Source: an uncultured Candidatus Saccharibacteria bacterium
Lineage (GTDB): Bacteria > Patescibacteriota > Minisyncoccia > Phycocordibacterales > UBA1006
DNA length: 39,089 bases
Assembly: GCA_964605495.1 (NCBI GenBank)
Contig: CAZSCW010000001.1
Location: 4,843-43,931 of the forward strand
Reading direction: 5' to 3'
Part shown: one piece after another, positions 695 through 39,089 of the stretch
Numbering within the stretch: the stretch's first letter is position 1
Layout: each line of letters starts with the position of its first letter
The notes under the pieces: model-generated
Databases searched by the model: none
What the model was told of the DNA's origin: nothing
The model's input: only the letters and a program-made list of their open reading frames with translations
Program-made: the position numbers and the translations under genes

Positions 695-724
695 ATTAAT
701 TAATAGTATACATTGTTTTTGATC

Positions 725-758
725 AAAAAGAAAAGAGCAGATCGCTCTTTTCTTTTTT
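725..758. terminator. intrinsic terminator hairpin downstream of the 1264-aa gene
   Basis: AGAAAAGAGC (729-738) pairs with GCTCTTTTCT (744-753) around a 5-nt loop. A/T runs flank both sides. Confidence 0.6.
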
Positions 759-770
759 AATATTAAATTT

Positions 771-4544: not shown

Positions 4545-4588
4545 ATCTATTATGCAGTATATCACTTTACTGAAATTAAATGCAAATT

Positions 4589-4614
4589 AAAAAACCTACA
4601 AATATAGGTTTTTT
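4589..4614. terminator. hairpin between the 948-aa and 1264-aa genes
   Basis: AACCTA (4593-4598) pairs with TAGGTT (4605-4610), extended by A/T runs. Confidence 0.45.
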
Positions 4615-4624
4615 AATATAAAAA

Positions 4625-7471: not shown

Positions 7472-7476
7472 ATATA

Positions 7477-8415: not shown

Positions 8416-8419
8416 ATCA

Positions 8420-9235: not shown

Positions 9236-9543
9236 ATGTATTATCATACTGTATTTTGACAAAAATCCATAATCGTTCTCTTTTTTGGATTTCCTATTGC
9301 CGATCAGGGATCATGTGTTACCCTTTAGTATAAGAGGCATTAGTGCCCCAAATTCAGTTGCTGTAGTATGGTTGTCCTGGTTGTCTATCCGCTTTACCGT
9401 AAAAAATTATCTAGAATTCTCAATTTATTTATATCTTTTGGTCTTTTTCTAGATAGTTTATTTTTTCTTGGCTTATAAACTTTTTCAAAACAAAAACCTC
9501 TTCTTTTTCTATTATACAAAAAATCACAAGTGGTGCTACCATT

Positions 9544-10578
9544 GTGACTTTAAGCGTTTGGGCTTTTGCTCCAAACGTTGTTTCTGCTGGTTTATTTAAT
9601 TTTGCATCTGCAGAACGTGCTGATACTCCTCGTGCAGAAACATTACAAAGTCTTCCTATTATGGAGGCGCATTTGTCACCTATGATGCTTGCAACTGTTG
9701 ATTCAACTGTGTCAATTACTGATGATGATACATTAACTGCTCCGTTTTCTTTATATGAATTGGATACAGTTGATGTTCCTGATCGTGAAACCATTTCGAC
9801 ATATACAGTCGAACCTGGTGATACTCTTTCAGGTATTGCAAATGAATTTGGTGTAAGTACTAATACTATCCGTTGGGCAAACGATATTCCAGCAAAAGCG
9901 ACAGTAAAGGTTGGACAAAAATTAGTGATCTTACCAATTACAGGAGTTCGCCATAAGGTAGCAAAAGGAGATACGATTGCAACCATTGCAAAGAGATATA
10001 AGGCTGATACTGCTGATATAGCATCATATAATGATCTTGATTCAGGTGAAAAATTAACCGTCGGTTCAACTATTATTGTACCTGATGGAGAAATTCAGTT
10101 TACCCAGGCACAGCTTGCAAAATCTTCAGGAAAAACTGGAAAGGGCGGAAATAGTACCGATTCCCAATATAAAAATACTATGGGCAAAATTGGAGGGATC
10201 TCAAAACAGTCTGCACCAAATGGATACTTTATTCGTCCTGTAGTAGGAACAAAAACTCAAGGGTTCCACGGACCATATAACGCTATTGATATTGGTGCCC
10301 CAGAGGGAACACCGATTGTTGCAGCAGCTGCAGGTACAGTAATTCTTGCAAAAGGTTCTGGTTACAATGGTGGATACGGAGGGTTAACTATTATTCAACA
10401 CCCAAATGGGTCACAAAGTTTGTACGCTCACCAAAGTAAAGTTACTGCAAATGTAGGTGACCATGTTGCACAAGGTCAAAAAATTGGTGAAGTTGGACAT
10501 ACCGGACGCGTAATTGGACGCACCGGAAATCATTTACACCTTGAATTCAGAAACATTAAAACTCCAATATTATATTAA
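9544..10578 (+). CDS. LysM-domain M23 family metallopeptidase (cell-wall hydrolase)
   Basis: Two LysM repeats (YTVEPGDTLSGIANEFGV..., HKVAKGDTIATIAKRYKA...). M23 core is AIDIGAPEGTPIVAAAAGTV...YAHQS...GEVGHTG...HLHLEF. GTG start; no ATG/GTG/TTG lies upstream in frame. Confidence 0.9.
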   Translation: MTLSVWAFAPNVVSAGLFNFASAERADTPRAETLQSLPIMEAHLSPMMLATVDSTVSITDDDTLTAPFSLYELDTVDVPDRETISTYTVEPGDTLSGIANEFGVSTNTIRWANDIPAKATVKVGQKLVILPITGVRHKVAKGDTIATIAKRYKADTADIASYNDLDSGEKLTVGSTIIVPDGEIQFTQAQLAKSSGKTGKGGNSTDSQYKNTMGKIGGISKQSAPNGYFIRPVVGTKTQGFHGPYNAIDIGAPEGTPIVAAAAGTVILAKGSGYNGGYGGLTIIQHPNGSQSLYAHQSKVTANVGDHVAQGQKIGEVGHTGRVIGRTGNHLHLEFRNIKTPILY

Positions 10579-10580
10579 AT

Positions 10581-10605
10581 AAAAAACTGCAGAACGCAGT
10601 TTTTT
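10581..10605. terminator. bidirectional terminator between convergent genes
   Basis: AAAAAACTGC agaac GCAGTTTTTT. Confidence 0.7.
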
Positions 10606-10611
10606 ATTTAA

Positions 10612-12132
10612 TCAGTTTTGTTTTGGTCTGTATTGTAGTGCTTCCAAAATATGGTCGCTAGTAATTATTTCCGAAGAATCTAAATCTGCAATCGTCCGAG
10701 CAAGTTTTATGACACGGTGATATGCACGAGGTGATAGTTTCATCATTTGCGCACTTTTATTTAATACTTGCCGCGCATCATCAGTAATTTCTAATTGCTC
10801 AACATCTCTTGACTGCATGTGTGCGTTTAATTTTTGATAAGTATTAAATCTTTCGAATTGCTTATCACGGGTTTGTTTTACTCGATTTTTTATATCTTCG
10901 CTTTTTTCTGCATGATGACTGTTACCTAATTTTTCATAATCAATATGTTCTACAGGAATCCATAGATCAATACGATCCATGATTGGTCCAGAAATTTTTC
11001 GCGAGTATCTGGCAATATCGTTTTGGGTACAAATACATTTTTTATTTAATGATCCTGCATTTCCGCAGGGACAAGGGTTCATTGCTGCAACTAAAATAAA
11101 TTGTGATGGAAACGTTGCGGTTCCTTTTGCACGAGAAATATTCACAATACGATCTTCCAGTGGTTGCCGCATTGATTCCAAAACTCGTGTTTCAAATTCT
11201 GGAAATTCATCTAAAAATAATACACCACGATGTGCAAGAGTTACTTCACCTGGCTTAGGGATAGTTCCACCACCAATGAGTGATACATAGCTTGACGTAT
11301 GGTGTGGCGACCTAAACGGTGGATGAATAATTAGTGGTTGTTGTAGTTTTCCAGAAATACTATGAATACCGGTGACTTCTAGTGCTTCATCTAATGATAG
11401 TGTCGGCAAGATTCCGGTAAATGCACGAGCTAACATTGTTTTTCCAGTTCCAGGCGGTCCAAACATGACAATATTATGCCCACCAGCTGCTGCAATTTCT
11501 AATCCCCTCTTTGCTATTTCTTGTCCTTTTATATCAAAAAAATCAGTTGTTATTTCTTGGTGTTCGTCGAAATTAATTTCTGTTTGTGGTTCAGGAGTTA
11601 ATTTTTCATTACCAGTTACATGATGTACAACTTGTTTTAAATTATCAACAGCATAAATGGTAATATCTGAAACCAATGCAGCCTCACAGGCATTTTTTCG
11701 TGGTACAAAAATTTCAGTGAAACCATTTTGTTTTGCATGTTGTACTAATGGTAACACTCCGCCAATTGGTTGAATACTTCCATCTAATGACAACTCACCT
11801 AAAAATATTTTATGTTCTGGGTCAAAATCGATTGTATGTGATGATAATAAATAACCAAGTGCAATAGCAAGATCAAAATACGATCCTTCCTTTTTTAATT
11901 CTGCAGGAGCAAGTGATACTACAGTTTTGAAATTTTCTTGTTTTGGAGAAACGAAACCTGAATTTTTTATTGAACTGGATACACGATCACGAGATTCTTC
12001 CACTGCTTTATCAGGTAATCCAATAATGGTAAAACTATGCAGTCCATTTGTAATATCTACCTCCACGGTAACTATATGTCCTTGTAATTGAAAAGGCTGC
12101 GCAGAATATACTCGTGAAAATGTAGAGATCAT
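10612..12132 (-). CDS. comM: YifB/ComM family Mg-chelatase-like AAA+ ATPase
   Basis: Lon-protease-like N-domain, Walker A GPPGTGKT, Walker B VLFLDEF, C-terminal ChlI-like domain, 506 aa. Confidence 0.9.
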   Translation of the reverse strand: MISTFSRVYSAQPFQLQGHIVTVEVDITNGLHSFTIIGLPDKAVEESRDRVSSSIKNSGFVSPKQENFKTVVSLAPAELKKEGSYFDLAIALGYLLSSHTIDFDPEHKIFLGELSLDGSIQPIGGVLPLVQHAKQNGFTEIFVPRKNACEAALVSDITIYAVDNLKQVVHHVTGNEKLTPEPQTEINFDEHQEITTDFFDIKGQEIAKRGLEIAAAGGHNIVMFGPPGTGKTMLARAFTGILPTLSLDEALEVTGIHSISGKLQQPLIIHPPFRSPHHTSSYVSLIGGGTIPKPGEVTLAHRGVLFLDEFPEFETRVLESMRQPLEDRIVNISRAKGTATFPSQFILVAAMNPCPCGNAGSLNKKCICTQNDIARYSRKISGPIMDRIDLWIPVEHIDYEKLGNSHHAEKSEDIKNRVKQTRDKQFERFNTYQKLNAHMQSRDVEQLEITDDARQVLNKSAQMMKLSPRAYHRVIKLARTIADLDSSEIITSDHILEALQYRPKQN

Positions 12133-12193
12133 ATAAAAAATATTTTATCACGAGAATTTTATTTTGAAAAAATGTCGTTAATTATTTTATAAT

Positions 12194-12221
12194 AAAAAAC
12201 TACTCATGTGAGTAGTTTTTT
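12194..12221 (-). terminator. terminator after the dksA-like gene
   Basis: AAAAAACTACTCA tg TGAGTAGTTTTTT. Confidence 0.65.
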
Positions 12222-12222
12222 A

Positions 12223-12597
12223 TTATAGATTCATCATTGCTTTGCAAGTTCGTGCAGCAGGATTTGCCATTAAACGATCAAGTTCGATAGGTTGTCCCGA
12301 TTTTTCACAAATACCATAGGTTCCATCTTCCATTTTTTTAAGAGCATCAACAACAGCTTTGAATCGTAATTCGATTTCACCTAATCGTGCAGATCGAGAT
12401 TCAAAATCTTCTACGTAATCAGCCTGGTCGGTATAATCAGATTCTGCATCTCCATCAGTTTCGACAGGGACTGCCATCCAATCTCCAGTACTTTTGTTTT
12501 GGACACCGATACTAGAAAGTTCCCCGCGGAGTGTTTCCTCCTCAGTTTCCAGTAGTTTTTTCAGTTCCGCAAGGGTTTTTTTGTCGATTTTGTTCAT
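12223..12597 (-). CDS. DksA/TraR-family zinc-finger protein
   Basis: 124 aa with a coiled-coil N-part and C-terminal YGICEKSGQPIELDRLMANPAARTC, as in TraR/DksA. Confidence 0.75.
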   Translation of the reverse strand: MNKIDKKTLAELKKLLETEEETLRGELSSIGVQNKSTGDWMAVPVETDGDAESDYTDQADYVEDFESRSARLGEIELRFKAVVDALKKMEDGTYGICEKSGQPIELDRLMANPAARTCKAMMNL

Positions 12598-12642
12598 AGT
12601 GTAGTGAGTATAGCAAAGATTCTAGTTTTGTCACTGTTGTGA

Positions 12643-14100
12643 CTATCTTCCAATCATGCGACGTAATAATGGTTCTGCTATTTCTGCAGATGGCGTAATT
12701 AATAATGTTCCGTCAGTAAGAAATCCATAGGTAATTGTTTTACCGGATGTAGTTGTTCCAATACGCATAGGAATATTATTTACAATTGTATCAACAAAAG
12801 TTGGCGCTTCTTCCTTGATTAATGTGTTTGATGTTTCATCAGGCCAAAATAATAATTGGGTTCCATCAATAATATCCGGCTCCCATTTATGTATTAATTG
12901 ATACATCATATCGTATCCTTCAAAACGAATTAAGAGAAACGGAACCTTTATACCAGATGATGGCTGGTAGTAACCATATATGAAATCATCAGCTTGTGAT
13001 GCAAAACCAGTTGGGAATTTTATTCCAAACGTTTCAATAAATAATTGCAATGTTGTTCGTGCACCCTGTTGTAGTGGGACAATAGCAGAAAATGTTTTTG
13101 TCCCGACTTCACTTGCTTGTAGTTCTTTTAGTTTGTCTTTTAGTTTAAATGTTTCAACTGATGTTAACTCAAAAGGTTTAATGGTTTCAACTCTCAATAA
13201 ATTAGTTGCATATTTTGTTGTATCAGTTCTAAGTAGCGGTACGGTTTTTGGTATTTGTGAAATATATGTATAACCAATTCCAATAATACCTGTCAAAATA
13301 AAAATTACAGAACCAATCATGTAAAAAATATTTTTTGGATTTTTTGGGCTTACTGATTTTTTCTCAGCTTCGCGTGCTCGTGCCTCGGTTAATAGTTCAG
13401 AAATAACCTTACCTTGGTATCCTGCAACACTTTGGGCAACATCAGTGTCATAAGTTACAATTGATGGAATAGATGATTTTGCAAGTGCTTCTTTTTGCCG
13501 CTCTTCTTCTTGTTGTGATGCTAGGAATGATCGCTCCTTATCCCTAAAGGTTATATCATCAAAAATCGATTGTAATACTGTAAACAATTCAACCTCTTTT
13601 GTATCAGTAAAATGTTCTGTACCAGAGAGTGCTTGTTTTTTTCCGGGTAGTAATTCAAAGAAACGCTGAGAAAGTTCTGGGTTAATAAAAGGATCTTTTG
13701 CGTTCCATATATGTACCGGTTCTGGAATTTTTTCTTTTAAAACATTCCAGTTAAGTGGTGTTTGCAAAAATGTTTCTGCAATAGGTGCAAGAGCTTTATG
13801 TGCGGGTACATCAATACAACCTGCAATACTGATGTACATACGGATTTTTTTCTCATGTAGTTCCATTAAACGTAATACCAAAAGAGAACTAATACCATGA
13901 CTAATAATAATTGTTTCTTCGTTAATAATTTCTTTGTATTGTTCTAATGATTTTAACCAAAACGTAAAACCTTGTTGAGCACCACTTGGTAGTTCTGGAG
14001 TGATCACTGAATAACCTGCAGGCAGGATTGATTGTGTTTGCGAGTACCAATAATCTGTTGGGTTTGCAAAAGCGTCATGAAATATAATTATATGTTTCAT
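12643..14100 (-). CDS. hypothetical protein: alpha/beta-hydrolase-like N-domain, one TM helix, unknown C-domain
   Basis: 485-aa ORF. The N-terminal ~180 aa loosely resemble YdeN/RBBP9-type hydrolases (weak, no clean GxSxG). TM is IFYMIGSVIFILTGIIGIGY. Confidence 0.55.
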   Translation of the reverse strand: MKHIIIFHDAFANPTDYWYSQTQSILPAGYSVITPELPSGAQQGFTFWLKSLEQYKEIINEETIIISHGISSLLVLRLMELHEKKIRMYISIAGCIDVPAHKALAPIAETFLQTPLNWNVLKEKIPEPVHIWNAKDPFINPELSQRFFELLPGKKQALSGTEHFTDTKEVELFTVLQSIFDDITFRDKERSFLASQQEEERQKEALAKSSIPSIVTYDTDVAQSVAGYQGKVISELLTEARAREAEKKSVSPKNPKNIFYMIGSVIFILTGIIGIGYTYISQIPKTVPLLRTDTTKYATNLLRVETIKPFELTSVETFKLKDKLKELQASEVGTKTFSAIVPLQQGARTTLQLFIETFGIKFPTGFASQADDFIYGYYQPSSGIKVPFLLIRFEGYDMMYQLIHKWEPDIIDGTQLLFWPDETSNTLIKEEAPTFVDTIVNNIPMRIGTTTSGKTITYGFLTDGTLLITPSAEIAEPLLRRMIGR

Positions 14101-14141
14101 ATAAGATCTAACATATAGTATACAATGTTTTTAAGTAAATA

Positions 14142-14174
14142 AAAAACACTCTCCTAACAGGAATAAGTGTTTTT
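14142..14174 (-). terminator. terminator after rpsO
   Basis: AAAAACACT pairs with AGTGTTTTT around a 15-nt loop, abutting the rpsO stop. Confidence 0.5.
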
Positions 14175-14437
14175 TATTTTAATCCAACTTTTGTAACTAC
14201 TTCTTGATATGAATCAAAGTTTTTCTTTTTCAAGAGATTTAGTAGTTTACGTCGCTCTGCAACCATGATTACCAACCCGCGTCGTGAATGGATATCTTTT
14301 TTATGTAGTTGCAAGTGTGCAGTTAATTGATTAATTTGCTCACTCAATAGAGCTACTTGAACTTCTGGTGATCCTGAATCAGTAGCAGTTTTTCCAAAGT
14401 TTTTGATAATTTTTGCTTTTGAGTCTTTTGTTAACAT
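14174..14437 (-). CDS. rpsO: 30S ribosomal protein uS15
   Basis: 87 aa with GSPEVQVALLSEQINQLTAHLQLHKKDIHSRRGL, typical of S15. Confidence 0.95.
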   Translation of the reverse strand: MLTKDSKAKIIKNFGKTATDSGSPEVQVALLSEQINQLTAHLQLHKKDIHSRRGLVIMVAERRKLLNLLKKKNFDSYQEVVTKVGLK

Positions 14438-20535: not shown

Positions 20536-20726
20536 TTGACTCATTGGACCGTTTTTGCTATTGTCTCATTTCGTGAGTGACCAGTGGGGAAACTGTCAGA
20601 CTTATGTTGTTCTTTAAAAAACCGAAAACTAGATTACCGTCCTGTTGGCCTGACAAGTCATTATGCATTTTAGTACAATTACGTTTTGAAAAACCCTTAC
20701 CATTTCTGGTAGGGGTTTATTTTTTT
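20536..20726 (+). ncRNA. candidate small RNA unit (promoter to terminator)
   Basis: TTGACT(20536)-17 nt-TATTGT(20559), then ~150 nt with no ORF, ending in the hairpin AAACCCTTACC/GGTAGGGGTTT plus a T-run (20691-20726). It contains the CTCA-tttcg-TGAG hairpin and the TGTTCTTTAAAA motif shared with the island modules. Confidence 0.3.
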
Positions 20727-29570: not shown

Positions 29571-30335
29571 ATGCAAGAGCGAATCAAAAAATTTCTCCAG
29601 GATATTGGCCTTTCTGAAAAAGAGGCAGCCGTGTATCTGTCGTTACTATCAGTAGACAGTGCATCTGTAATTGAACTTTCAAAATCAACTGATATCAATC
29701 GAACAACATTATATCCAATTTTGGACGATTTGATTGCAAAAAAACTCGTTGTTGAGATAAAGCACGATAAAAAGGTTCGTTTTCAAGCAGAACCACCAGA
29801 ACGCATTGAAACATATGTTCAAAATCGAAAAAATCAGTTAGAGGAACAGGAAAAAGTGTTAGAGGATATTATTCCACAAATGCGTGGGTTTTCACGACAA
29901 ACAGGCGAAAAGCCGATTGTTAAAATATACGAAGGTCACGATGGAATATTGGATGCCATGAGTGATTATTATGAATTTTTAGGTAAAGATCAGGATGCAT
30001 ATTTAGTGTATTCACGAGATCTTATTGAATCTGCATTTTCAAAAAAGGAATTGGAACAAATAAAACAGAAGCGTTTAGGTAAAAATATTCCAGCAAGTGC
30101 AATTTATACGAAGAGCGATGGAGACTATACAACAGAATTGTCACCAAATCAGTTGCGAGTTGATGCTGAAAAATATCCAATTTTGGCAGATATTGCTGTG
30201 CTAGGTGACAGGGTTCGATTCATTACATTAAAACGAAATCTATCTGCTATTTTAATTAAGAACCAGGATATTGCTGAAACATTACAAAGCTTGATTAAAT
30301 TGGTATTAGATTCGCAAAATAATAACCGCACATAA
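29571..30335 (+). CDS. TrmB-like winged-helix transcriptional regulator (paralog 1)
   Basis: N-terminal LQDIGLSEKEAAVYLSLLSVDSASVIELSKSTDINRTTLYPILDDLIAKKLV, TrmB-type wHTH. ~170-aa C-domain. Confidence 0.8.
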   Translation: MQERIKKFLQDIGLSEKEAAVYLSLLSVDSASVIELSKSTDINRTTLYPILDDLIAKKLVVEIKHDKKVRFQAEPPERIETYVQNRKNQLEEQEKVLEDIIPQMRGFSRQTGEKPIVKIYEGHDGILDAMSDYYEFLGKDQDAYLVYSRDLIESAFSKKELEQIKQKRLGKNIPASAIYTKSDGDYTTELSPNQLRVDAEKYPILADIAVLGDRVRFITLKRNLSAILIKNQDIAETLQSLIKLVLDSQNNNRT

Positions 30336-30930: not shown

Positions 30931-30959
30931 TTGACAAAATATAATGAATCTGCTATACT
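30931..30959 (+). promoter_or_regulatory. strong sigma70-type promoter firing into the noncoding rsr leader
   Basis: TTGACA-17 nt-TATACT. A perfect DnaA box TTATCCACA sits at 30904-30912 just upstream. Confidence 0.6.
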
Positions 30960-31181
30960 GCAATTAAGAACGTGAGATACAGTCATGTTCAATACCGCGA
31001 GATACATAAAAACTGTTTAATTCTTTAGACAGACTCTTGAAACCAAGTCCACTTGATATCAGCCATATGGTTGGTATCTGGAATAGTTGGAATCAGGTAC
31101 GTCACCGAATGACGTTAAATGTCGGCGCAATCATATGCGATATTGAATAATTCTTTTACAAAAAAATAAAACTATATAACT

Positions 31182-31349
31182 ATGCCAAAAACACCGAAAG
31201 ATATCTGGAAATTAACAGTTGCCCTACTGGACCAAAACGGCTTTACCACTCGTGGTGAAAAGAAAAAAGACGCACAGAAGAAAAAGAAGCAATTCTTTTT
31301 TGAAAAGCGATTACTTACTAATCCGGTTGGGAATGGAAAACACCGTTAA
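31182..31349 (+). CDS. possible 55-aa basic small protein in the leader
   Basis: Hand-translated MPKTPKDIWKLTVALLDQNGFTTRGEKKKDAQKKKKQFFFEKRLLTNPVGNGKHR*. No clear RBS. Confidence 0.25.
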   Translation: MPKTPKDIWKLTVALLDQNGFTTRGEKKKDAQKKKKQFFFEKRLLTNPVGNGKHR

Positions 31350-31399
31350 GTTACCATCTGTCTCTCTTGCAGGTTTTGGCGTAGCCAAAGAGAATGTTC

Positions 31400-31474
31400 A
31401 TAATCGTAACTGATTATGATCTTTATCCAGATTATGAAGCAATTCATAGTTTGGTAGAGATGTTCTTTCAAAAA
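31400..31474 (+). ncRNA. A-type RNA module, copy A1 (variant)
   Basis: Small hairpin ATAATC/GATTAT, then CTTTATCCAGATTATGAAG-caat-TCATAGTTTGGTAGAG, then tail ATGTTCTTTCAAAA. Confidence 0.5.
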
Positions 31475-31547
31475 TCTTGAAAGGAATATCCCCAGCATCA
31501 TTTATAAAACGGAGATGGTGTTTGGAATATTCCTTTCGAGGAGAAAA
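31475..31547 (+). ncRNA. C-type RNA module, copy C1
   Basis: TCTTGAAAGGAATATCC ... GGAATATTCCTTTCGAGGAGAAAA, a ~16-bp stem. Confidence 0.5.
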
Positions 31548-31811
31548 ACAATAGGCTGGTGTCAGGACCACAACATCTCTGAATTTACATTCGAACTAAA
31601 TCGGATATAAATGTGGGATTGTTTGCAGAAATATTAAAAAATAATTCTTTGATAAGAGAAAGTAGGAAGATGCAAGAGCTTAGTCATTTCGACTATGTAT
31701 CGTCTATCCTATGATCCGCCTTTCTGATCAAAAGGTTTCAAATTTCTTGGCAGGGTATTACAACTATATCCTTATCTATAAGCATGACGATGTGAAATGG
31801 TAAAATTTTTC

Positions 31812-31921
31812 GGGAAATTGTTTTGCAATCGAGCAAAACAATTTCCCTTCTTATCAGGATCATAACTAATACAAAAAGTTATGGTTCTGTAGGAAGTAAT
31901 GGTCCTACTGTTCTTTTAAAA
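31812..31921 (+). ncRNA. A-type RNA module, copy A2
   Basis: Perfect 15-bp hairpin GGGAAATTGTTTTGC/GCAAAACAATTTCCC, then TTCTTATCAGGATCATAA-13 nt-TTATGGTTCTGTAGGAAG, then tail ...CTGTTCTTTTAAAA. Confidence 0.55.
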
Positions 31922-32692
31922 ATTGTTCACCAAACCGTTCTGCTTCTCAACCTGTGTTGTCGCGCAGGGCCATTATCCGTAAGGATATGGCGTTCCCTTG
32001 GATCTACTTGTCGCTGACTATTATTTCCCGGCTTGGAAATGATGGAAGACTACCTATCCGAGGTTACTTCGCAAATCTAACAAATAAAATTATGTTTTAC
32101 TGTTGGTGGATTCTCAATTCTCGACCAGAGGATTGTAGGGTTTACCAACGCAAACCGAGAAGCAGAGGGTGTGACTACCTGGGGCGGTTACCCAAACAGT
32201 CCAAGCGTTAGCAATCTTGATTATTATTTTCTTTATCATGCATTCCCATCAACCAGGAAGCCAATGTTTCAAAAAGAAACGTTGGCTTCTATCATCGGGA
32301 ATGATATGTTAGGAAAATAATTTTCAAGTCGTTTGGAATGATCATGTGCGCAGTGATTGTTCGAACCAAAGGTTGGTACTCCTTTGGAAGTTGTTAGGAT
32401 GATTCAGGAAATTCTTCTAGAGCTATTCAATGGTCTGGCCGGACTATTGATAGACGTGAAGGGTTTCCTGACATCCGAAATGTCCCGGCACTATGTCAGG
32501 ACAGTTACCTTATTCGCCTCTTGTCGCTTGATCTTTGATTTCTATACCAATAGAGAGAAAAGAAACGACTGCAGAATTAGGTTACTTCGCAGAAAAGTCT
32601 TTTTATTTCGGCGGGGATCCTGTTCCGTACAGACGATACCGCCAGGCCTTGGGATTGAACATAATGTTCAATCCCTTCTTATCAGGATCATA
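31879..32692 (+). ncRNA. ~0.8-kb ORF-poor, highly structured segment between modules A2 and A3
   Basis: Multiple long stems:
- 32244-32300: CATTCCC...GGAAGCCAATGTTTC-aaaaa-GAAACGTTGGCTTC...GGGAATG
- CCTGACAT/ATGTCAGG at 32467-32499
- long-range TCTGCTTCTC (31939-48) pairing with GAGAAGCAGA (32156-65). Confidence 0.4.
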
Positions 32693-32728
32693 AAGTAATT
32701 TGTGATTCTGTAGGAATTTGTTCTTTGA
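32651..32728 (+). ncRNA. A-type RNA module, copy A3 (immediately upstream of rsr)
   Basis: GGGATTGAAC-ataat-GTTCAATCCC, then TTCTTATCAGGATCATAA-loop-TGTGATTCTGTAGGAA, then tail TTTGTTCTTTGA. Confidence 0.55.
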
Positions 32729-32758
32729 TTTTAAAATAATTCTGTTGCTGACGATTTG

Positions 32759-32813
32759 TTTATTTGGTGAAAAAGGGGGTTAAATCACATGTGACTCTCT
32801 TTCACCAAATAAA
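32759..32813 (+). promoter_or_regulatory. perfect 14-bp hairpin ending 9 nt before the rsr ATG
   Basis: TTTATTTGGTGAAA (32759-72) pairs with TTTCACCAAATAAA (32800-13). The 27-nt loop contains AAGGGGG. Confidence 0.5.
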
Positions 32814-32822
32814 ATTTCGTCT

Positions 32823-34427
32823 ATGACTACTATACATACTATTACCGCTGCTTTTGCTGGAAGATCTACAGAATCATCTCATGTTAATCATGCAGGTGGT
32901 ACATCTTTCAGAAGATCCTTGTGGGAACAACTCCTACAAGTACTCAGCACGAATACCTTGAGTGATACATTTTATGTGAAGAAGGAGCAGCTTGCTTCGG
33001 AAACCATAGATGTGATCATGGAGGCTCGTGAAAAAGATCACCGTTTCCTCGCACAAGCAATTGTGTGGGCGCGTAGAGATGGTTTAATGAAATTGGTTCC
33101 GACACTTGCTCTCGCGATTCTTTCTGGAAAGAAAGGTATCGAGCCGCAATTGTTTTTGAACACGTTTCAGCAAACAATCTTGACGCCGGATGATCTCCGC
33201 ACATTCGTTTCAATCATCAAGTCTGGTGTAGTGCCAGGCAGAAGAGGAATTGGTGGAGTGGTGCGCGATGCTGTTCGTACTTGGATGGGTGGTATTTCCG
33301 AATATCATGCTGTTAAGTACGGCTCGGTTAATTCCGATGGAGTTACACTCCGCGACATCTTGCGCCTGACTCACCCGAAACCATCTTCTGATGTGTTGAA
33401 CGAGCGTTTTGGATGGCTTGCAGGTTCGCGCAAGGGAGACCTTACGTTGAATCCGCAGATTTTGTCATTGGAAAAATTGAAGCGTGCAACAACCGAAGAA
33501 GAGATAGTTCAATTGGTTCGCCAAGGAAGACTACCCTACGAGGTTGTGGTGCCGTCAGTTCCGAAGATGACAAAGGCTGTGTGGGCCGAGCTGTTACGAC
33601 AAGCTCCGTACATGAACCTACTTCGAAACTTACGTTCGTTCCGCGAACATGGAGTTTTTGAAGACCAGGCAAATGTCGAGTACGTTGTTGGCAGACTCAC
33701 CGATCCGCGTGCGGTTGAGGCAAGTCGAGTATTACCATTCCGCTTTTTTGATGCGTTAAAAGCTTTCACATTCACCTCTGCACCCGACATGCAGATACGT
33801 GATGCGATAGCGAGCGGGCTTGAATTGTCATTTGTGAATCTTCCGAATTTCGGTTCGGAGACACATGTGACAATTGGTTCAGATGTCAGTGGTTCAATGT
33901 CATCTTATTCAATCTCTGAAAAGAGCGAGACTAAGTGCATTGATATCTGTGGTGTCTTTACCGGAGCTCTCTTAAAACGTAGCGAAAATGTACTTACACT
34001 TCCATTCGAGGGACATGTTGTACATTTGCCACTTTCAAAGCACGACAGCATCGCTGAAACGGCTCGAAAGATTGCAAGTGTGCGAGGTGGTTCCACAGCG
34101 GTTGGTGCACCAATACAATACCTGCTTGATCGTAAGATTAAGACAGATGTATTCATTGGTATCACTGACAACGAGGATTGGGCATATGGATCAGGACACG
34201 CAGTGTCAGGTAAATTTTACGACTTGTGGTTACGCTACAAGAAGGAAATTAACCCAAATGCGAAAGCATTTCTGGTAACCATTCTCCCATACCGCGACGC
34301 TGTAGCCCCTGAGGGCTCGGATGTTCATTTCATCTACGGATGGAGTGAGAAGGTATTGAATTATATTGCTTTGAAAATATCTACAGGCGCGAGTCAGGTA
34401 GATAAGATCAGAACGATAGAAGTTTGA
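32823..34427 (+). CDS. rsr: Ro60-related protein Rsr (TROVE domain + vWA domain)
   Basis: 534 aa. N-terminal NHAGGTSF...LSDTFY and ...AQAIVWARRDGLMKLVPTLALAIL match the TROVE pattern of Ro60/Rsr. The C-terminal vWA has the MIDAS motif DVSGSM. Visibly higher G+C than its neighbours. Confidence 0.85.
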   Translation: MTTIHTITAAFAGRSTESSHVNHAGGTSFRRSLWEQLLQVLSTNTLSDTFYVKKEQLASETIDVIMEAREKDHRFLAQAIVWARRDGLMKLVPTLALAILSGKKGIEPQLFLNTFQQTILTPDDLRTFVSIIKSGVVPGRRGIGGVVRDAVRTWMGGISEYHAVKYGSVNSDGVTLRDILRLTHPKPSSDVLNERFGWLAGSRKGDLTLNPQILSLEKLKRATTEEEIVQLVRQGRLPYEVVVPSVPKMTKAVWAELLRQAPYMNLLRNLRSFREHGVFEDQANVEYVVGRLTDPRAVEASRVLPFRFFDALKAFTFTSAPDMQIRDAIASGLELSFVNLPNFGSETHVTIGSDVSGSMSSYSISEKSETKCIDICGVFTGALLKRSENVLTLPFEGHVVHLPLSKHDSIAETARKIASVRGGSTAVGAPIQYLLDRKIKTDVFIGITDNEDWAYGSGHAVSGKFYDLWLRYKKEINPNAKAFLVTILPYRDAVAPEGSDVHFIYGWSEKVLNYIALKISTGASQVDKIRTIEV

Positions 34428-34728
34428 TATCTTTGAAGGGATGTTGATATTTGGCGATCGGACCGGTTTCACACTGCTTACTACTACCGATAGCAAGGTA
34501 GCGTACAAGTATTTTTTCAAACGGAAAAAATGCGGAGCAGCCGGTTGGCAACAGAAAGTACCTTGCTTGCGAGGGAAAAAGTGAAGAAGGTATCAGATTC
34601 CGCCTTTTAAAATAATTGGAATCACTATATAGACTATTTCGTCATGTTTGCGAAAGCACATGAATATCCTCGCCTTGGTGGAAAACGAAAAGGTGAAATA
34701 GTCAGCGGTTACCAGAAATGGATCCGCA

Positions 34729-34779
34729 CCTGTCCTGAAATGTATATTTCAGCTGATGAGTCCAACAGGACGAAACAGG
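34729..34779 (+). ncRNA. type III hammerhead ribozyme HHR-1
   Basis: CCUGU-C(cut after 34734)-[CUGAAAU guau AUUUCAG]-CUGAUGA-[GUCC aaca GGAC]-GAA-ACAGG. All core nucleotides are present, with a GUC cleavage triplet and stem III open. Confidence 0.9.
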
Positions 34780-34798
34780 AATTGATATCGTGAATTAC

Positions 34799-34837
34799 AA
34801 CAAAACCGCTTGATTGCGGTTTTGTTGTTTCTTTTTC
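34799..34837 (+). terminator. intrinsic terminator right after HHR-1
   Basis: AACAAAACCGC ttgatt... GCGGTTTTGTT followed by a T-rich tail. Confidence 0.65.
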
Positions 34838-34858
34838 TACTCGTGCTATAATTTTGTT

Positions 34859-35407
34859 ATGAAAAGTATTAATACCATTAAAAATACAATAAAACATCAT
34901 CAATCAACCATTACTAAAATAATAATGGTTGTAGTAGTAATTGGATCAGCTTTTGCAGTACATCATGTAATGGCAGCTGATATTCCTGCAGCACCAAATC
35001 CTGCAAAATTGGTAAATGATAATGCAGGAATGTTGAGCGCTGAGCAAATTTCAACACTCGAGAAAAAATTACGAGCATATAATGATTCGACAACTAATCA
35101 AATAGTAATTGTAACAGTGCCAAGTATTGGAATGTACGCAATTGATGATTATGCAAACCGATTAGCAAATCAATGGGGAATTGGAGTTAGCGGAAAAGAT
35201 AATGGAATTTTGGTATTAGTTGCAAAAGGTGAAAAACAAATTGATATTGAAGTTGGTACACGCATGGATGCATCTGTAACTGATATTGATGCAAAACGAG
35301 TTATTGATCAACAAATGGTTCCAGCGTTCAGTAAAAAGGATTACTATGGAGGACTGACAGCGGCAGTTGATAAGTTAATTGCAACTATTACAGCACATCC
35401 TTTATAA
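34859..35407 (+). CDS. TPM-domain (YgcG-like) protein
   Basis: Signal/TM, then VNDNAGMLSAEQISTLEKKLRAYNDSTTNQIVIVTV...GILVLVAKGEKQIDIEVG. Start at MKSINT (34859), behind TATAAT at 34845. Confidence 0.85.
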   Translation: MKSINTIKNTIKHHQSTITKIIMVVVVIGSAFAVHHVMAADIPAAPNPAKLVNDNAGMLSAEQISTLEKKLRAYNDSTTNQIVIVTVPSIGMYAIDDYANRLANQWGIGVSGKDNGILVLVAKGEKQIDIEVGTRMDASVTDIDAKRVIDQQMVPAFSKKDYYGGLTAAVDKLIATITAHPL

Positions 35408-35410
35408 ATA

Positions 35411-35443
35411 AAAACACCTCATTCCGCAGAATGAGGTGTTTTT
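35411..35443. terminator. bidirectional terminator
   Basis: CACCTCATTC cgca GAATGAGGTG with A/T runs. Confidence 0.7.
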
Positions 35444-36218
35444 ATTTTGCCTGTATCCACAGTGTTTCAAAAATCATTTTCGCAAATTCGTAAATAGATT
35501 TATTGGTGATTACAATAGAATGTAATCCCTGATCCCAAATAGTAAATGTCACGTGATTTTTCCAGATAGAACAATGCAAATTCGGATTGAGTATTTTTTT
35601 TGAAATAATTCGTGTATCACGCAGTTTTAATCGTGATTCTTTTAGTTCGTCTTTTGCCATAGGGGATTCGGTAATAATGTTTCGTGCTGTAATACCTTTT
35701 TTCCGGCGAGCTTTACCATACCCATGCAGACGATCCTTTGCAACAGTAAATTTCTCAACTTCACCAGAAATACGTAACACTTCTCCATTTTTATCTTGAT
35801 CAAGTGACCTAAAAAACAAATCAATAAAACCGTCTTCACCTTCCAAGTGTTCTACATCTATTTGTTCAGTTTCGCCACGTAATGCAAAAAACGTACGAAG
35901 TTCTGGAAAAACAGATTCTAATGACTCCATTTTTTGTGTTGCAATTATTTTTTCATACTCTACAAAGTTTTTTATTTTTTCAGGTTTTTCAATATACATC
36001 ATGCGCCGCTTACCAAGTTTGGTTACACCCAAAACTTTTCTCTCAAGGAGGTTTTCAGTAGCTACATGTACCGTCGAACGGGGAAGTTTCACCCCAGATG
36101 CAATATCTGCAATAGTCGAAAGTCCAGATTTAAACAAGTAAAAAATAACCTGCTGTTCGGCCATGTCCAACCCAATAGTTTTTAATGCTGTTTTAATATC
36201 TTTTGGTATTTCAATCAT
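35442..36218 (-). CDS. TrmB-like winged-helix transcriptional regulator (paralog 2)
   Basis: LKTIGLDMAEQQVIFYLFKSGLSTIADIASGVKLPRSTVHVATENLLERKVL. Same length and architecture as 29571..30335. Confidence 0.8.
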   Translation of the reverse strand: MIEIPKDIKTALKTIGLDMAEQQVIFYLFKSGLSTIADIASGVKLPRSTVHVATENLLERKVLGVTKLGKRRMMYIEKPEKIKNFVEYEKIIATQKMESLESVFPELRTFFALRGETEQIDVEHLEGEDGFIDLFFRSLDQDKNGEVLRISGEVEKFTVAKDRLHGYGKARRKKGITARNIITESPMAKDELKESRLKLRDTRIISKKILNPNLHCSIWKNHVTFTIWDQGLHSIVITNKSIYEFAKMIFETLWIQAK

Positions 36219-36342
36219 GATTACAGTGTAGCATATATGTTTAAAATGACCAATTTTTATGACACTTTTAAAATATAATACTAATTTATAAAGGATATAT
36301 TCAAAATAATAATTAAAGTATTAGTATTTAGTGTCATTTTAC

Positions 36343-36371
36343 TTGACTTTTCATGTATACCATGCTATACT
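36343..36371 (+). promoter_or_regulatory. sigma70-type promoter firing into noncoding modules
   Basis: TTGACT-17 nt-TATACT. An inverted repeat ATGACAC..ATACTAAT / ATTAGTAT..GTGTCAT (36259-36337) abuts the -35. Confidence 0.55.
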
Positions 36372-36434
36372 GGTTGTAGAAAGATGAGATAAGAAAAACA
36401 TCTTTCATAAAAATTGTTCATTAAAAAACAACAT

Positions 36435-36572
36435 ATGAAAAGAATAAGAGAGTTTTTTGAAAATTTTAGTGATGATCACCCATTCATCACAGCAATAATG
36501 GTATTAGCTGTTATTGTTTATGTATGTCACTGGTTAGGTGTGCATACATCCTTGTCTGGCATTGACAGATAA
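36435..36572 (+). CDS. possible 45-aa hydrophobic peptide
   Basis: Hand-translated MKRIREFFENFSDDHPFITAIMVLAVIVYVCHWLGVHTSLSGIDR*. One TM-like stretch. No clear RBS. Confidence 0.3.
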   Translation: MKRIREFFENFSDDHPFITAIMVLAVIVYVCHWLGVHTSLSGIDR

Positions 36573-36586
36573 ATGCAAAGGAAAAT

Positions 36587-36665
36587 GGACGAGCCTTTAT
36601 AAAATCGTCCACATTATTCAGCTCACGAATTTCGCGAGTTGATAGTGTAACAATGTTCTTTGAAA
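36587..36665 (+). ncRNA. B-type RNA module, copy B1
   Basis: GGACGA-12 nt-TCGTCC, then CATTATTCAG-CTCACGAatttCGCGAG-TTGATAGTG, then tail AATGTTCTTTGAAA. Confidence 0.5.
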
Positions 36666-36668
36666 TAA

Positions 36669-36730
36669 TCTCGAAAGGAATATTCTGCATATCAGAATAT
36701 GATGAATAGAATATTCCTTTCGAGGAGAAA
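36669..36730 (+). ncRNA. C-type RNA module, copy C2
   Basis: TCTCGAAAGGAATATTC ... GAATATTCCTTTCGAGGAGAAA. Confidence 0.5.
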
Positions 36731-36844
36731 GCACTTCTTGTTTTGGTTGTTGAACAGGAAAGTAGAGACCTGCTCTCTCATGACACAACAACCAGCCTCG
36801 TATAGTTTGATGGAACTATGCTGTGGCGTATTTGCTCCATCATA

Positions 36845-36928
36845 GGGAAGTGTATAAGCAGAAACACTTCCCTTTCTTATCAGGATCATAAAACAATTTG
36901 TGGTTCTGTAGGGAAATGTTCTTTGAAA
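36845..36928 (+). ncRNA. A-type RNA module, copy A4
   Basis: GGGAAGTGT-10 nt-ACACTTCCC, then TTTCTTATCAGGATCATAA-loop-TGTGGTTCTGTAGGGAA, then tail ATGTTCTTTGAAAAG. Confidence 0.55.
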
Positions 36929-36931
36929 AGA

Positions 36932-36981
36932 TTTAATTGGTTACCTAAGTTTCTTACCAGAAATTTAGGTAACCAATTAAA
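36932..36981 (+). promoter_or_regulatory. perfect 17-bp hairpin ending 9 nt before the lipoprotein ATG
   Basis: TTTAATTGGTTACCTAA (36932-48) pairs with TTAGGTAACCAATTAAA (36965-81). 16-nt loop. Confidence 0.5.
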
Positions 36982-36990
36982 TTAAGAGAT

Positions 36991-37305
36991 ATGAAAAAGA
37001 TAAGTATTATCGCATTAGGATTCATAATGTTTTTGACTTCTTGTAAAAACGAAACCTATTACCAAGGTAAGGGTGTAGTTATTGAAGAAGACAGAACATA
37101 CTTTGGGGGTGTGCAAGTGAAAGTATCAGTTGATACTGCAGGAGATGGTAACCAGATTTGGTTCTGGGCATCTCCTGCAGGTTTTGCTGATAGCTATCAC
37201 CGCTATTCTCAAGGTGACACCGTAGACGTTGAATACATGGCATTCAATAGTTGGGTCAGTCCTGTGACGGAAAAGTCCAAACAAGACAGCGCTGAAGTAC
37301 AGTAA
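36991..37305 (+). CDS. small lipoprotein, hypothetical
   Basis: MKKISIIALGFIMFLTSC has an LTSC lipobox. 104 aa. Confidence 0.7.
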   Translation: MKKISIIALGFIMFLTSCKNETYYQGKGVVIEEDRTYFGGVQVKVSVDTAGDGNQIWFWASPAGFADSYHRYSQGDTVDVEYMAFNSWVSPVTEKSKQDSAEVQ

Positions 37306-37377
37306 GCATGTCGCTGGCTAAGGTGCAAAACACCTTACACTCTTGTCTGAAAGAGGTAAAACTTCAGGAAGGAGAAC

Positions 37378-37455
37378 GGGCAAGCCTATATAAAATTGCC
37401 CTCATTATTCAACTCACGAATTTCGTGAGTTGATAGTGTAAGTAGTTCTTTAAAA
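37378..37455 (+). ncRNA. B-type RNA module, copy B2
   Basis: GGGCAA-12 nt-TTGCCC, then CATTATTCAA-CTCACGAatttCGTGAG-TTGATAGTG, then tail TAGTTCTTTAAAA. The first stem is fully compensated relative to B1. Confidence 0.5.
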
Positions 37456-37679
37456 TGACAAATATTTTTTATGGAAGGTTTTATAGAATATCCCCAGTAT
37501 TGTATAGTTTTGGTATAACGCTGTACAAACTCGCTTATGATTCGGCACTATCCGACTCAATGATTGGCACCTGCATATGCCAAAGGAATTGGTTGATTTA
37601 CCAAATACCAATTTCAAAACTAGTAGGTTGATTATTCGTATGGGATTACGAACCTGTCTCTAGAAGATAAATGATCAAC

Positions 37680-37766
37680 GGAGAAACAAATGCCTTGGGA
37701 AATGTTTCTCCTCTTTATCCAATCCATGAAGTAATTCGTGGATTGGTAGAGAAAATGTTCGTTACA
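37680..37766 (+). ncRNA. A-type RNA module, copy A5 (variant)
   Basis: GGAGAAACA-14 nt-TGTTTCTCC, then TCTTTATCCAATCCATGAAG-taat-TCGTGGATTGGTAGAG, then tail AAAATGTTCGTTACAAAA. Confidence 0.5.
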
Positions 37767-37848
37767 AAAATATTTTCCAATCTATTAAATTCAGAAGATA
37801 ATAACTCTTAAATATTTTGGGTAAATTAACCAAATTTTTAAGTTAAGT

Positions 37849-38055: not shown

Positions 38056-38178
38056 ACCCTCTCGCTCTAGAGGTATTGTCGTTAGACATGAGAGGTGCGT
38101 TTTGTCCCCGTCTTGCCGAAAAGATGGAGAGCCTCGAGGAAGCAGAGCCTCACGAGTGATTGCATCTTGCATCCTCGT

Positions 38179-38230
38179 TCTGTCCTAGAATGTATTATTC
38201 TAGCTGATGAGTCCAAAAGGACGAAACAGA
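38179..38230 (+). ncRNA. type III hammerhead ribozyme HHR-2
   Basis: UCUGU-C(cut after 38184)-[CUAGAAU guauu AUUCUAG]-CUGAUGA-[GUCC aaaa GGAC]-GAA-ACAGA. Stems I and III differ from HHR-1 only by compensatory pairs. Confidence 0.9.
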
Positions 38231-38268
38231 TTCTTTTACAAATTTCATAAACAAAAAAAACAGATAGC

Positions 38269-38568
38269 ATGGAAAAGAAATATTATCACTTAGAAAACCT
38301 TGATAAAATCATCACTAAAAAAATCGAGAGTGAACCACAACCACAAATGCAGTCACAGTCACATCTACCGCCAAACTGTATAGACTGTAAGCATCATCGT
38401 GTACTTCCTGACCCAGATCCCGATGATTGGTTCTGTGATGACGATGAAAAAGTTTTGTGTACCCTTGCGAAAAAATTAGTGACAGTCGCATGCAGGCCGC
38501 ACCACAAGCGAAAAGAATGCACGGTTCCGTCATGGTGCCCACTGCTGCAAGCAAACCAAACCGTATAA
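38269..38568 (+). CDS. hypothetical Cys-rich 99-aa protein
   Basis: Eight Cys (CIDC...FCDDDEKVLC...ACRPHHKRKEC...WC). Starts 39 nt after HHR-2. Confidence 0.55.
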   Translation: MEKKYYHLENLDKIITKKIESEPQPQMQSQSHLPPNCIDCKHHRVLPDPDPDDWFCDDDEKVLCTLAKKLVTVACRPHHKRKECTVPSWCPLLQANQTV

Positions 38569-38928: not shown

Positions 38929-38996
38929 TAGTTTTCACAGAACAGGAAATCCCTGTTCTTTTTATTCAATTTAATCTATAATTAGAAAATAATTCT

Positions 38997-39089
38997 ATGA
39001 AAGAACAATTAATTATAAAACGCGAAAGCAAACAAGAAAATCGAGAAAGTTTTTTAAAGCGATTGGAAGGGAAATTTACACCAGAACAA
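38997..39089 (+). CDS. hypothetical protein, first 31 codons (runs off the right edge)
   Basis: ATG at 38997. MKEQLIIKRESKQENRESFLKRLEGKFTPEQ stays open to the window end. Confidence 0.4.
   Translation, partial: MKEQLIIKRESKQENRESFLKRLEGKFTPEQ

Follow-up and report, generated by a model that had tools for sequence, protein, structure and literature searches.

The locus described here raises the question of why a small two-hairpin module is repeated between the genes of an island that includes rsr, the gene of the Ro60 (Rsr) protein, in a bacterium of the Candidate Phyla Radiation (CPR). The DNA analysed, called the window throughout, is a stretch of 39,089 nucleotides (nt) from an uncultured Candidatus Saccharibacteria bacterium (GenBank assembly GCA_964605495.1, contig CAZSCW010000001.1, positions 4,843 to 43,931 of the forward strand). 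An initial annotation of this DNA saw in the module a possible processing, ribozyme or Rsr-binding element. We found that the conserved tail of the module is, judged by its sequence, a BoxA, that is a NusB/NusE (NusB/S10) site, which makes anti-termination of transcription and the punctuation of transcripts likelier functions than a ribozyme or the binding of Ro. On balance, it appears probable that the module is an intercistronic RNA signal comparable to those of rrn operons and of the lambda nut sites, in which structured RNA followed by a single-stranded BoxA would reload Nus factors on RNA polymerase.

Architecture and copies of the module

The window carries seven copies of the module, all on the + strand. 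Each is composed, in this order, of a first hairpin (H1), a linker of 0–2 bases, a second hairpin (H2) and, 2–7 bases further on, a tail of the form (A/U)UGUUCUUUNAAA. H1 is a hairpin of free sequence with 6–24 base pairs (bp), mostly closed by a GGR...YCC clamp. H2 is a helix of 18–19 bp formed by a lower stem of 5–7 bp, one bulged U and an upper stem of 11–12 bp that often ends in a GNRA loop. The U·G, U-A and A-U pairs beneath the bulged U are invariant in the seven copies. This single bulged U above an invariant trio is a better description of what had been presented as a small internal loop (UAU opposite UA), and the G·U positions are more numerous than the two pairs that had been counted. 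The BoxA-type core of the tail across modules is GUUCUUUNAAA.

For all five copies listed in the initial annotation (A1 to A5) the coordinates, give or take a few bases, and the fold given there are confirmed; the number of copies rises to seven with two that it did not contain, C1 (36586–36665) and C2 (37378–37455). H1 was located by folding, H2 by matches to the covariance model R1 (see below) and the tail by alignment (A1 to A5 and C1) and by agreement with the BoxA consensus (A1, A2, C1, A4 and C2). In A1 the hairpin H1 of the minimum free energy (MFE) fold (31398–31419) ends 1 nt before H2 (31421–31459), which shows the complete set of lower stem, bulged U, upper stem and GCAA loop (R1 match at 31419–31477, 73.3 bits), and BoxA GTTCTTTCAAA lies at 31462–31472. 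A2 begins with a terminator-like H1 (31812–31847), a 15 bp stem followed by TTCTTATC that was also detected by the terminator scan. Its H2 (31849–31894, 59.3 bits) is separated from BoxA GTTCTTTTAAA (31910–31920) by an extra hairpin, H3 (31889–31908), whose 5′ arm shares the 3′ strand of the H2 lower stem; the copy had been reported correctly at 31812–31921, with no mention of this additional hairpin. A3 has an H1 at 32651–32675, likewise terminator-like by folding and terminator scan, an H2 at 32677–32715 (70.2 bits) and a BoxA-like sequence GTTCTTTGATT at 32720–32730, 93 nt ahead of the rsr start codon.

The other four copies lie further downstream. C1 has its H1, with loop GCCUUUAUAAAAU, at 36586–36611, H2 at 36612–36647 (65.7 bits) and BoxA GTTCTTTGAAA at 36655–36665, while in A4 the same positions are taken by 36845–36872, 36875–36913 (76.3 bits) and an identical BoxA GTTCTTTGAAA at 36918–36928. 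In C2, H1 (37378–37401) and H2 (37403–37438, 63.2 bits) are followed by GTTCTTTAAAA (37445–37455), a perfect fit to the consensus GYTCTTTAANA (PMC5725501). A5 is formed by H1 at 37680–37711, H2 at 37713–37751 (77.1 bits) and the BoxA variant GTTCGTTACAA at 37757–37767; the upper stem of its H2 is rewritten by compensatory changes that keep the pairing, as had been pointed out before.

The five copies first reported have RNAfold z-scores from −5.3 to −8.8, and none of 200 shuffled sequences folds as well. MFE folds of four window copies hinted at a three-way junction in which the tail pairs 5′ of H1. This fold was rejected: over 127 copies the duplex energy is the same for cognate (−3.9), non-cognate (−4.05) and shuffled (−4.0) partners, and the tail shows no systematic pairing with upstream sequence.

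Conservation, strand and covariation

Along the line suggested in the initial annotation, a covariance model (R1) was built from H2 and the tail of the seven window copies. It recovers all seven at E values below 1e-9. The other matches in the window are weak (E 0.11 or worse): four on the minus strand that overlap copies, one at 38991–39028 (−) and one at 20601–20624 (+, E 6.1). In 299 kb around rsr homologues R1 finds 51 matches, all on the rsr strand and clustered near rsr, with 11 in locus L002 and 10 in L013. A scan of metagenomes with a degenerate module pattern yielded 102 loci; 100 of these were searched with R1, which confirms 117 copies in 62 loci, always on one strand per locus and with up to 13 copies in a locus. 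A loose linear pattern has at least 120 matches in viral contigs. The 80 viral loci tested with R1 (660 kb) gave one marginal match; they match the pattern by chance and serve as a negative control for the model.

Pairing is kept while sequence changes. Standard pairs make up 98.3% of the H2 pair cells in the seven window copies, as compared to 39–44% in controls with a slid register, and in 9 of the 17 pairs both sides have changed. The fraction of paired cells is 97.2% in 42 distinct copies from Rsr loci and 98.0% in 90 distinct metagenome copies (register-slid controls 38–50%), with 13 of the 17 pairs doubly changed in each of the two sets. The element is thus structured, lies on the gene strand and is selected for pairing rather than being a simple repeat, as had been proposed. 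The U5·G wobble is found in 36 of the 42 Rsr-locus copies and in 81 of the 90 metagenome copies. Fixed G·U positions would be C·A on the other strand, which points to folding of the + strand, most simply as RNA. H1 was found in each of 129 distinct copies, as compared to 113 of 600 random positions (19%). On average 4.7 of the 8 bases that follow H1 are U, and the terminator scan flags two of the H1 hairpins of the window.

All 168 R1 matches in Rsr loci and metagenomes are on the gene strand. This one-strand orientation and the change of sequence with pairing kept speak against a repeat of the miniature inverted-repeat transposable element or repetitive extragenic palindrome type; target-site duplications were not looked for. 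No family of Rfam 15 matches the module, Y RNA and drum families included, and a literature search gave no report of hairpin-BoxA repeats from CPR bacteria. For 105 of the 117 metagenome copies the next 250 nt contain the start of an open reading frame (ORF), at a median gap of 44 nt and with a median length of 107 amino acids (aa); 35 of the 40 downstream proteins tested belong to no Pfam family. The richest locus, L161 (14.4 kb, 1–14419), lacks rsr, and its 13 modules all lie on one strand. It encodes rtcB (6358–7683), a DEAH-box helicase (1664–3496) and several unannotated ORFs, and a conserved GC-rich hairpin follows each of its modules.

The BoxA-type tail

The tail profile of 42 copies is G38, U37, U37, C39, U32, U39, U39, any base, A30 and A34. 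In 34 secondary metagenome copies, which had not been chosen by the search pattern, it reads G33, T34, T33, C34, T31, T33 and T32. The BoxA consensus GYTCTTTAANA is gamma-proteobacterial (PMC5725501). Exact matches to it number 17 on the gene strand and none on the other strand of 329 kb. The form GTTCTTTAAAA, present at 37445–37455 in the window and in L002, L008 and other loci, is letter for letter the BoxA of the Legionella pneumophila Lens CRISPR (clustered regularly interspaced short palindromic repeats) locus. In synthetic arrays this Legionella BoxA relieves polarity and restores expression of distal spacers (bioRxiv 10.1101/2020.06.17.157628). The hairpin–BoxA order is the one of rrn operons: in all copies H2, H3 or stem III of a hammerhead ends 2–11 nt ahead of BoxA. 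The mean probability that a tail base is unpaired is 0.53, as compared to 0.06–0.17 in most of H2, and the tail is unpaired in MFE folds of isolated modules.

Two further likenesses were noted. The rrn BoxA of Firmicutes reads UGUUCUUUGAAAA. An oligonucleotide for mycoplasma detection, GTTCTTTGAAAACTGAAT, presumably targets the 16S-23S spacer. The latter belongs to a nested primer set (PMC3019172), and the window sequence GTTCTTTGAAAA at 36655 and 36918 matches it.

Promoter readings of the tail were rejected. Its TTGAAA or TTTACA as a sigma-70 −35 hexamer, or TAAAAT as a −10 hexamer, has no consistent partner hexamer, the spacing to the TTGATA of H2 varies from 12 to 16 and at times spans a whole hairpin, and the promoter scan reports strong promoters only at 30931 and 36343. 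For sigma-54 the GG and GC dinucleotides are not conserved, as judged by eye.

One perfect BoxA (GTTCTTTAAAA, 20609–20619, +) stands alone in a short unit without ORF at 20537–20720, which opens with a TTGACT-17-TATTGT resembling a promoter (by eye), closes with a hairpin resembling a terminator and is followed by GAAAACUAGAU. The unit may be a small RNA with a BoxA.

Position of the modules in two predicted operons

The scan of the + strand found just two strong promoters of sigma-70 type and two operon-end terminators, so that the modules are internal to two long predicted transcription units. The first promoter (30931–30959, +), TTGACA-17-TATACT with a TG, would drive operon 1, which ends at an intrinsic terminator at 34797–34828 (+); the second (36343–36371, +) would drive operon 2, ending at the terminator at 38939–38959 (+). 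In operon 1 the order is a small ORF, A1, a long hairpin with non-coding RNA, A2, non-coding RNA, A3, a hairpin, rsr, a Y-like RNA, a hammerhead and the terminator. Operon 2 reads small ORF, C1, hairpin, A4, hairpin, lipoprotein gene, C2, A5, ORF, hammerhead, two ORFs and terminator. The modules are on the same strand as all array genes and between promoters and terminators, as predicted from sequence.

The two operon promoters are alike in the −10 region and early leader (30951–30979 and 36363–36391; TGCTATACTG...AGA..TGAGATA), which suggests a common control. Long near-perfect hairpins lie directly 3′ of BoxA at 31476–31541, 36670–36724, 32759–32813 and 36931–36983. The first two are related to each other (CGAAAGGAAUAUUC...GAAUAUUCCUUUCGAGGAGAAA). 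The last two end 7–9 nt ahead of the start codons of rsr and of the lipoprotein gene, so that BoxA and AUG would be brought side by side; the same layout of BoxA, hairpin and start codon is found in L161 and L014.

Hammerhead ribozymes at module positions

Two type III hammerheads are present in the window, both on the + strand. One (34727–34781) is followed by a degenerate BoxA-like sequence, GTGAATTACAA, and then by the operon terminator. The other (38177–38232) precedes the BoxA-like ATTCTTTTACA (38234–38244) and lies upstream of ORF 38269–38568. They score 42.8 and 40.6 bits (E 7e-7 and 3e-6), under the Rfam gathering cut-off of 48.5 bits, and their cores are complete. The earlier statement that hammerheads precede the other two genes of the island applies to the second of them, the first being ahead of a terminator.

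The positional equivalence of hammerhead and module that had been suspected is seen directly in a close relative. The window and locus L009, whose Rsr proteins are 90% identical, are colinear, and the 210 nt after rsr are ~99% identical. Beyond them the window has the hammerhead at 34727–34781 and L009 an H1-H2 module at the orthologous spot; both continue with a common GATATCGTGAATTACAAYAAAA and the terminator. BoxA is degenerate at this last joint of operon 1, just ahead of the terminator.

A hammerhead-core search gave 10 matches in Rsr loci (~7 distinct) and 18 in metagenome loci (~13 distinct), and one spurious match without BoxA in 1.04 Mb of viral control. Most of the array hammerheads have a GUUCUUU-type BoxA 2–11 nt downstream. 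In L014, for instance, a hammerhead (13269–13323) directly adjoins GTTCTTTAAAA at 13324, and a hairpin and an ATG come next; others are found in L011 (13522–13545), in L004 (845–872 and 1860–1883) and in many metagenome loci. A literature search found no natural pairing of hammerhead and BoxA. In L007, from a Doudnabacteria metagenome-assembled genome (MAG), a hammerhead core (12134–12157) is present ~12 nt upstream of the transfer-messenger RNA gene (12170–12300), a short way downstream of rsr.

A proposed transcription signal renewed at gene joints

Anti-termination by BoxA and Nus factors is textbook knowledge for rRNA operons and phage lambda and has lately been extended to suhB and CRISPR arrays. 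We infer a comparable role for the module. Transcription would proceed along operons of same-strand genes and non-coding RNAs separated by modules. At each joint H1, with its GGR...YCC clamp and the U-rich run after it, would mark the end of the preceding gene or non-coding RNA, acting as a leaky intrinsic terminator, a protective 3′ hairpin, or both. H2, 2–7 nt before BoxA, could act like boxB as the helix adjoining BoxA. BoxA (GUUCUUUNAAA) in the nascent RNA would then bind NusB-S10 and assemble a Nus complex on RNA polymerase. The polymerase so modified would read on across the poorly translated or untranslated unit that follows and past the H1 after it, where the signal would be renewed. 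At some joints a type III hammerhead would stand in place of H1-H2 and cut the transcript instead of ending it with hairpins.

Several properties of known systems accord with this proposal. The rrn order is boxB-boxA-boxC, and BoxA is necessary and sufficient for formation of the rRNA transcription anti-termination complex (rrnTAC), while complexes of the N type resist intrinsic and Rho-dependent terminators (PMC10250234). NusB-NusE has a double-stranded RNA site contiguous with its BoxA site (PMC3177189). As in rrn, the module presents a hairpin and, within a few bases, a BoxA of GYUCUUUAANA type, which recurs within an operon (in rrn, in the leader and the spacer) and precedes long untranslated structured RNA. 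It differs from rrn in not being at rRNA genes but at nearly every gene joint (7 in the window, up to 13 per array), in having two stacked hairpins with conserved features where the rrn boxB is dispensable and unconserved, in the absence of a recognised boxC and in that a hammerhead can replace its hairpins. The BoxA of the suhB 5′ untranslated region and of CRISPR leaders (Baniulyte 2017; Stringer 2020) has the same core and is located ahead of non-coding arrays or no more than 50 nt from start codons; those are single sites without a conserved two-hairpin partner, whereas the BoxA described here belongs to a composite module that is repeated in CPR bacteria. Lambda nut, the site bound by N, also combines BoxA with a hairpin and gives read-through of terminators inside a long operon; its order is the reverse one, boxA then boxB. 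No N-like protein was identified among the array proteins, the small basic ORFs being the only candidates.

A number of observations weigh against an anti-termination role. No gene for a Nus factor was found by Pfam among the window proteins, an uninformative result, and rRNA operons are absent from the window and from all fetched loci. R1 rewards the tail, and conservation of the tail among R1 matches is thus partly a matter of ascertainment. The unpaired probability of the tail (0.53) barely exceeds that of its flanks (~0.4). H2 has invariant features, whereas the boxB hairpins of rrn are not conserved; H2 may thus have a further specific partner or take part in processing, for which anti-termination offers no explanation. 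BoxA is renewed at each joint, up to 13 times per array, unlike in lambda or rrn. Finally, BoxA is often just 10–25 nt from the start codon. In E. coli suhB a BoxA near the start codon leads to translational repression and Rho termination, not to read-through (PMC5725501).

Cassette-like behaviour of related arrays

Related arrays diverge within 0–14 nt of BoxA: at 0 for L002/L199, −3 and −14 for L002/L010, −4 for L010/L218, and +6 for L188 and L195 compared with L230. The homology breakpoints are at 8991, 12098, 12627 and 13120 in L002, 13243 and 13253 in L010, 3197 in L188 and 1731 in L195. The unit exchanged between arrays is BoxA + ORF + H1-H2. Breakpoints at BoxA fit recombination at the sole conserved sequence and are by themselves no proof of site-specific recombination. 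We propose only tentatively, as a doubtful extension, that H1-H2/BoxA modules, together with the hammerhead/BoxA units found in their place, may be the joints of an undescribed CPR cassette-array system; such joints would end or cut the upstream unit, re-arm the polymerase with Nus factors and, at the DNA level, exchange cassettes of BoxA + ORF + H1-H2. If this were true, bacterial type III hammerheads would gain a concrete job.

Alternative explanations

The module could also serve for punctuation at the level of RNA processing and stability, which seems to us rather unlikely. H1-H2 would here be the 3′ end of the upstream unit, either blocking 3′ exonucleases or being cut by a protein endonuclease, which might be RNase III acting on the 18–19 bp of H2 or RNase Y acting in the open tail. 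The module would thus be a counterpart of the hammerhead that depends on protein, and BoxA would be mainly a Nus-dependent translational repressor as in suhB and not an anti-terminator. The shared position of hammerhead and H1-H2 in close relatives and across many arrays agrees with such a role, as do the wobbles and the bulge of H2, which resemble those of helices recognised by proteins, the geometry of suhB repression found where BoxA is 10–25 nt from AUG, and the fact that H1-H2 travels with the upstream ORF because of the composition of the exchanged unit. RNase III, however, requires no conserved sequence such as UUA[U]C...G-UAG, and a BoxA ahead of long non-coding stretches (after A1 and A2) would be left unexplained. 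Processing and anti-termination are mutually compatible.

It is quite improbable that the two stem-loops bind RNA polymerase directly and render it resistant to terminators, without or beside Nus factors, in the manner of HK022 putRNA. In that RNA of ~70 nt one base at the fork joins the two stem-loops; it also has bulges and, in the low part of stem II, an unpaired U that is wedge-like (PMC9378689), and it acts in cis in early operons. The gross architecture, which is all that was compared, is similar in the module: H1, 0–2 nt and H2 with a bulged U low in its helix. No sequence relation to put was found and no Rfam family matches. H1 is free in sequence and length (6–24 bp), whereas stem I of put has a triplex and conserved bases, and the conserved sequences of put stems I and II contact the beta′ zinc-binding domain; put needs no BoxA, and a hammerhead can stand in for the whole of H1-H2.

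The breakpoints next to BoxA raise the case of a folded recombination site of attC type, the arrays then being integron-like cassette arrays. Small, mostly unannotated ORFs on one strand, gene content that varies between close relatives, breakpoints 0–14 nt from BoxA in several independent comparisons, and a hairpin with an extrahelical base and a conserved GTT would all be in keeping with it. The same breakpoints are nevertheless expected from ordinary homologous recombination at the sole conserved 11–20 nt. An attC site has inverse core sites R″ (RYYYAAC) and R′ (GTTRRRY) that pair, and an integron integrase nearby. No adjacent integrase was found, the nearest tyrosine recombinase being ~8 kb before the island; an inverse core site (AAAGAAC) is missing upstream and the tail is unpaired with upstream sequence; GTTCTTT does not fit GTTRRRY; and the joints can also carry hammerhead ribozymes, which work as RNA. 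We hold an attC-like site to be very unlikely.

Still less credit is given to a new class of self-cleaving ribozyme doing the job of the hammerhead. Positional equivalence to hammerheads in the same arrays is the kind of reasoning that yielded twister-sister, pistol and hatchet. Yet beside BoxA, which also follows complete hammerheads, the conserved unpaired bases of the module come down to the bulged U and the linker, the sequence of H1 is unconstrained and the tail pairs back to no junction. Rfam 15 searched at E up to 5 matches only the two hammerheads and, on the modules, none of the known self-cleaving families (hammerhead, twister, twister-sister, pistol, hatchet and HDV-like).

The rsr gene, its setting and a candidate Y RNA

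The window is AT-rich (~33% GC) and of a cellular genome of CPR/Patescibacteria type, with genes for CCA-adding enzyme, UvrD, a XerC-like protein, KsgA, HU and tRNAs. In this genome rsr (32823–34427, +; TROVE and vWA domains) stands out by a GC content of ~47%. The nearest homologues of its product are from Paceibacterota MAGs. Its flanks are kept in relatives, with a TrmB regulator upstream and RNase Y, ClpP and trigger factor downstream, and the small genes in between vary. Two genes of TrmB-family regulators, at 29571–30335 (+) and 35442–36218 (−), flank the arrays and are syntenic in relatives. A basic protein of ~53 aa (..NGF..DG.PK....Q.FFE+R.I..P.GN..), without Pfam family, is encoded in most of the related Rsr arrays inspected (window 31182–31349; L002 9048–9209; L001 ~12248; L011 12118–12279; L014 13055–13210); a lipoprotein, an MKKI+-FF-DF membrane peptide and an Arg/Lys-rich protein of 52 aa are other recurring small families. 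Array start codons, judged by eye, are mostly without a Shine-Dalgarno sequence.

A likely Y RNA of the locus is found elsewhere than in the modules. The segment 34428–34640, directly after the rsr stop codon, is ~99% identical to L009 while neighbouring coding DNA is ~84% identical; no Rfam family matches it. In relatives the stretch after rsr has in common ...AUCGGAU.GGU...UUGGCAACAGAAA, and three of them carry, right after rsr, the bacterial Ro-binding motif GNCGAAN0-1G as defined in PMC4201824. A literature search found nothing on Ro60 RNAs of CPR bacteria.

The initial annotation had raised the idea that the module itself is bound by Rsr or resembles a Y RNA. At most Rsr loci with R1 matches of E 0.05 or better (the closer relatives and L006), rsr is preceded by a copy at a distance of no more than ~150 nt, the distance in L006 being 800 nt; more distant Rsr loci have only weaker matches upstream of rsr. 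Some copies thus adjoin rsr, and H2 is bulged like the helix to which Ro binds. The module differs from the bacterial Y RNAs (YrlA/YrlB, Yrn1) in that neither GNCGAAN0-1G nor GGUCCGA occurs in its alignment and that ARAGORN and Rfam detect no tRNA-like domain in it. The gene rsr is present in just 5 of the 102 metagenome loci obtained with the module pattern, and the 97 loci without it include one of 14.4 kb with 13 copies; the module is therefore hardly a Y RNA or Rsr site. With this distribution, and a better candidate, 99% conserved and carrying the Ro motif in relatives, directly after rsr, the idea is largely refuted and keeps next to no probability.

Biological implications

BoxA and its use outside rRNA operons were already known. 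Here it belongs to a conserved composite module that recurs at nearly all joints between the genes of accessory arrays in CPR/Patescibacteria, for which, to our knowledge, there is hardly any experimental transcription biology. The R1 covariance model and the sequence signature are usable for finding such arrays. The presence of rsr in one array is no ground for calling such repeats Y RNAs. The pairing of hammerhead and BoxA and its exchange with the two-hairpin module lead to a testable idea for bacterial hammerheads, namely that they may serve in a punctuation of transcripts coupled to re-arming of the polymerase.

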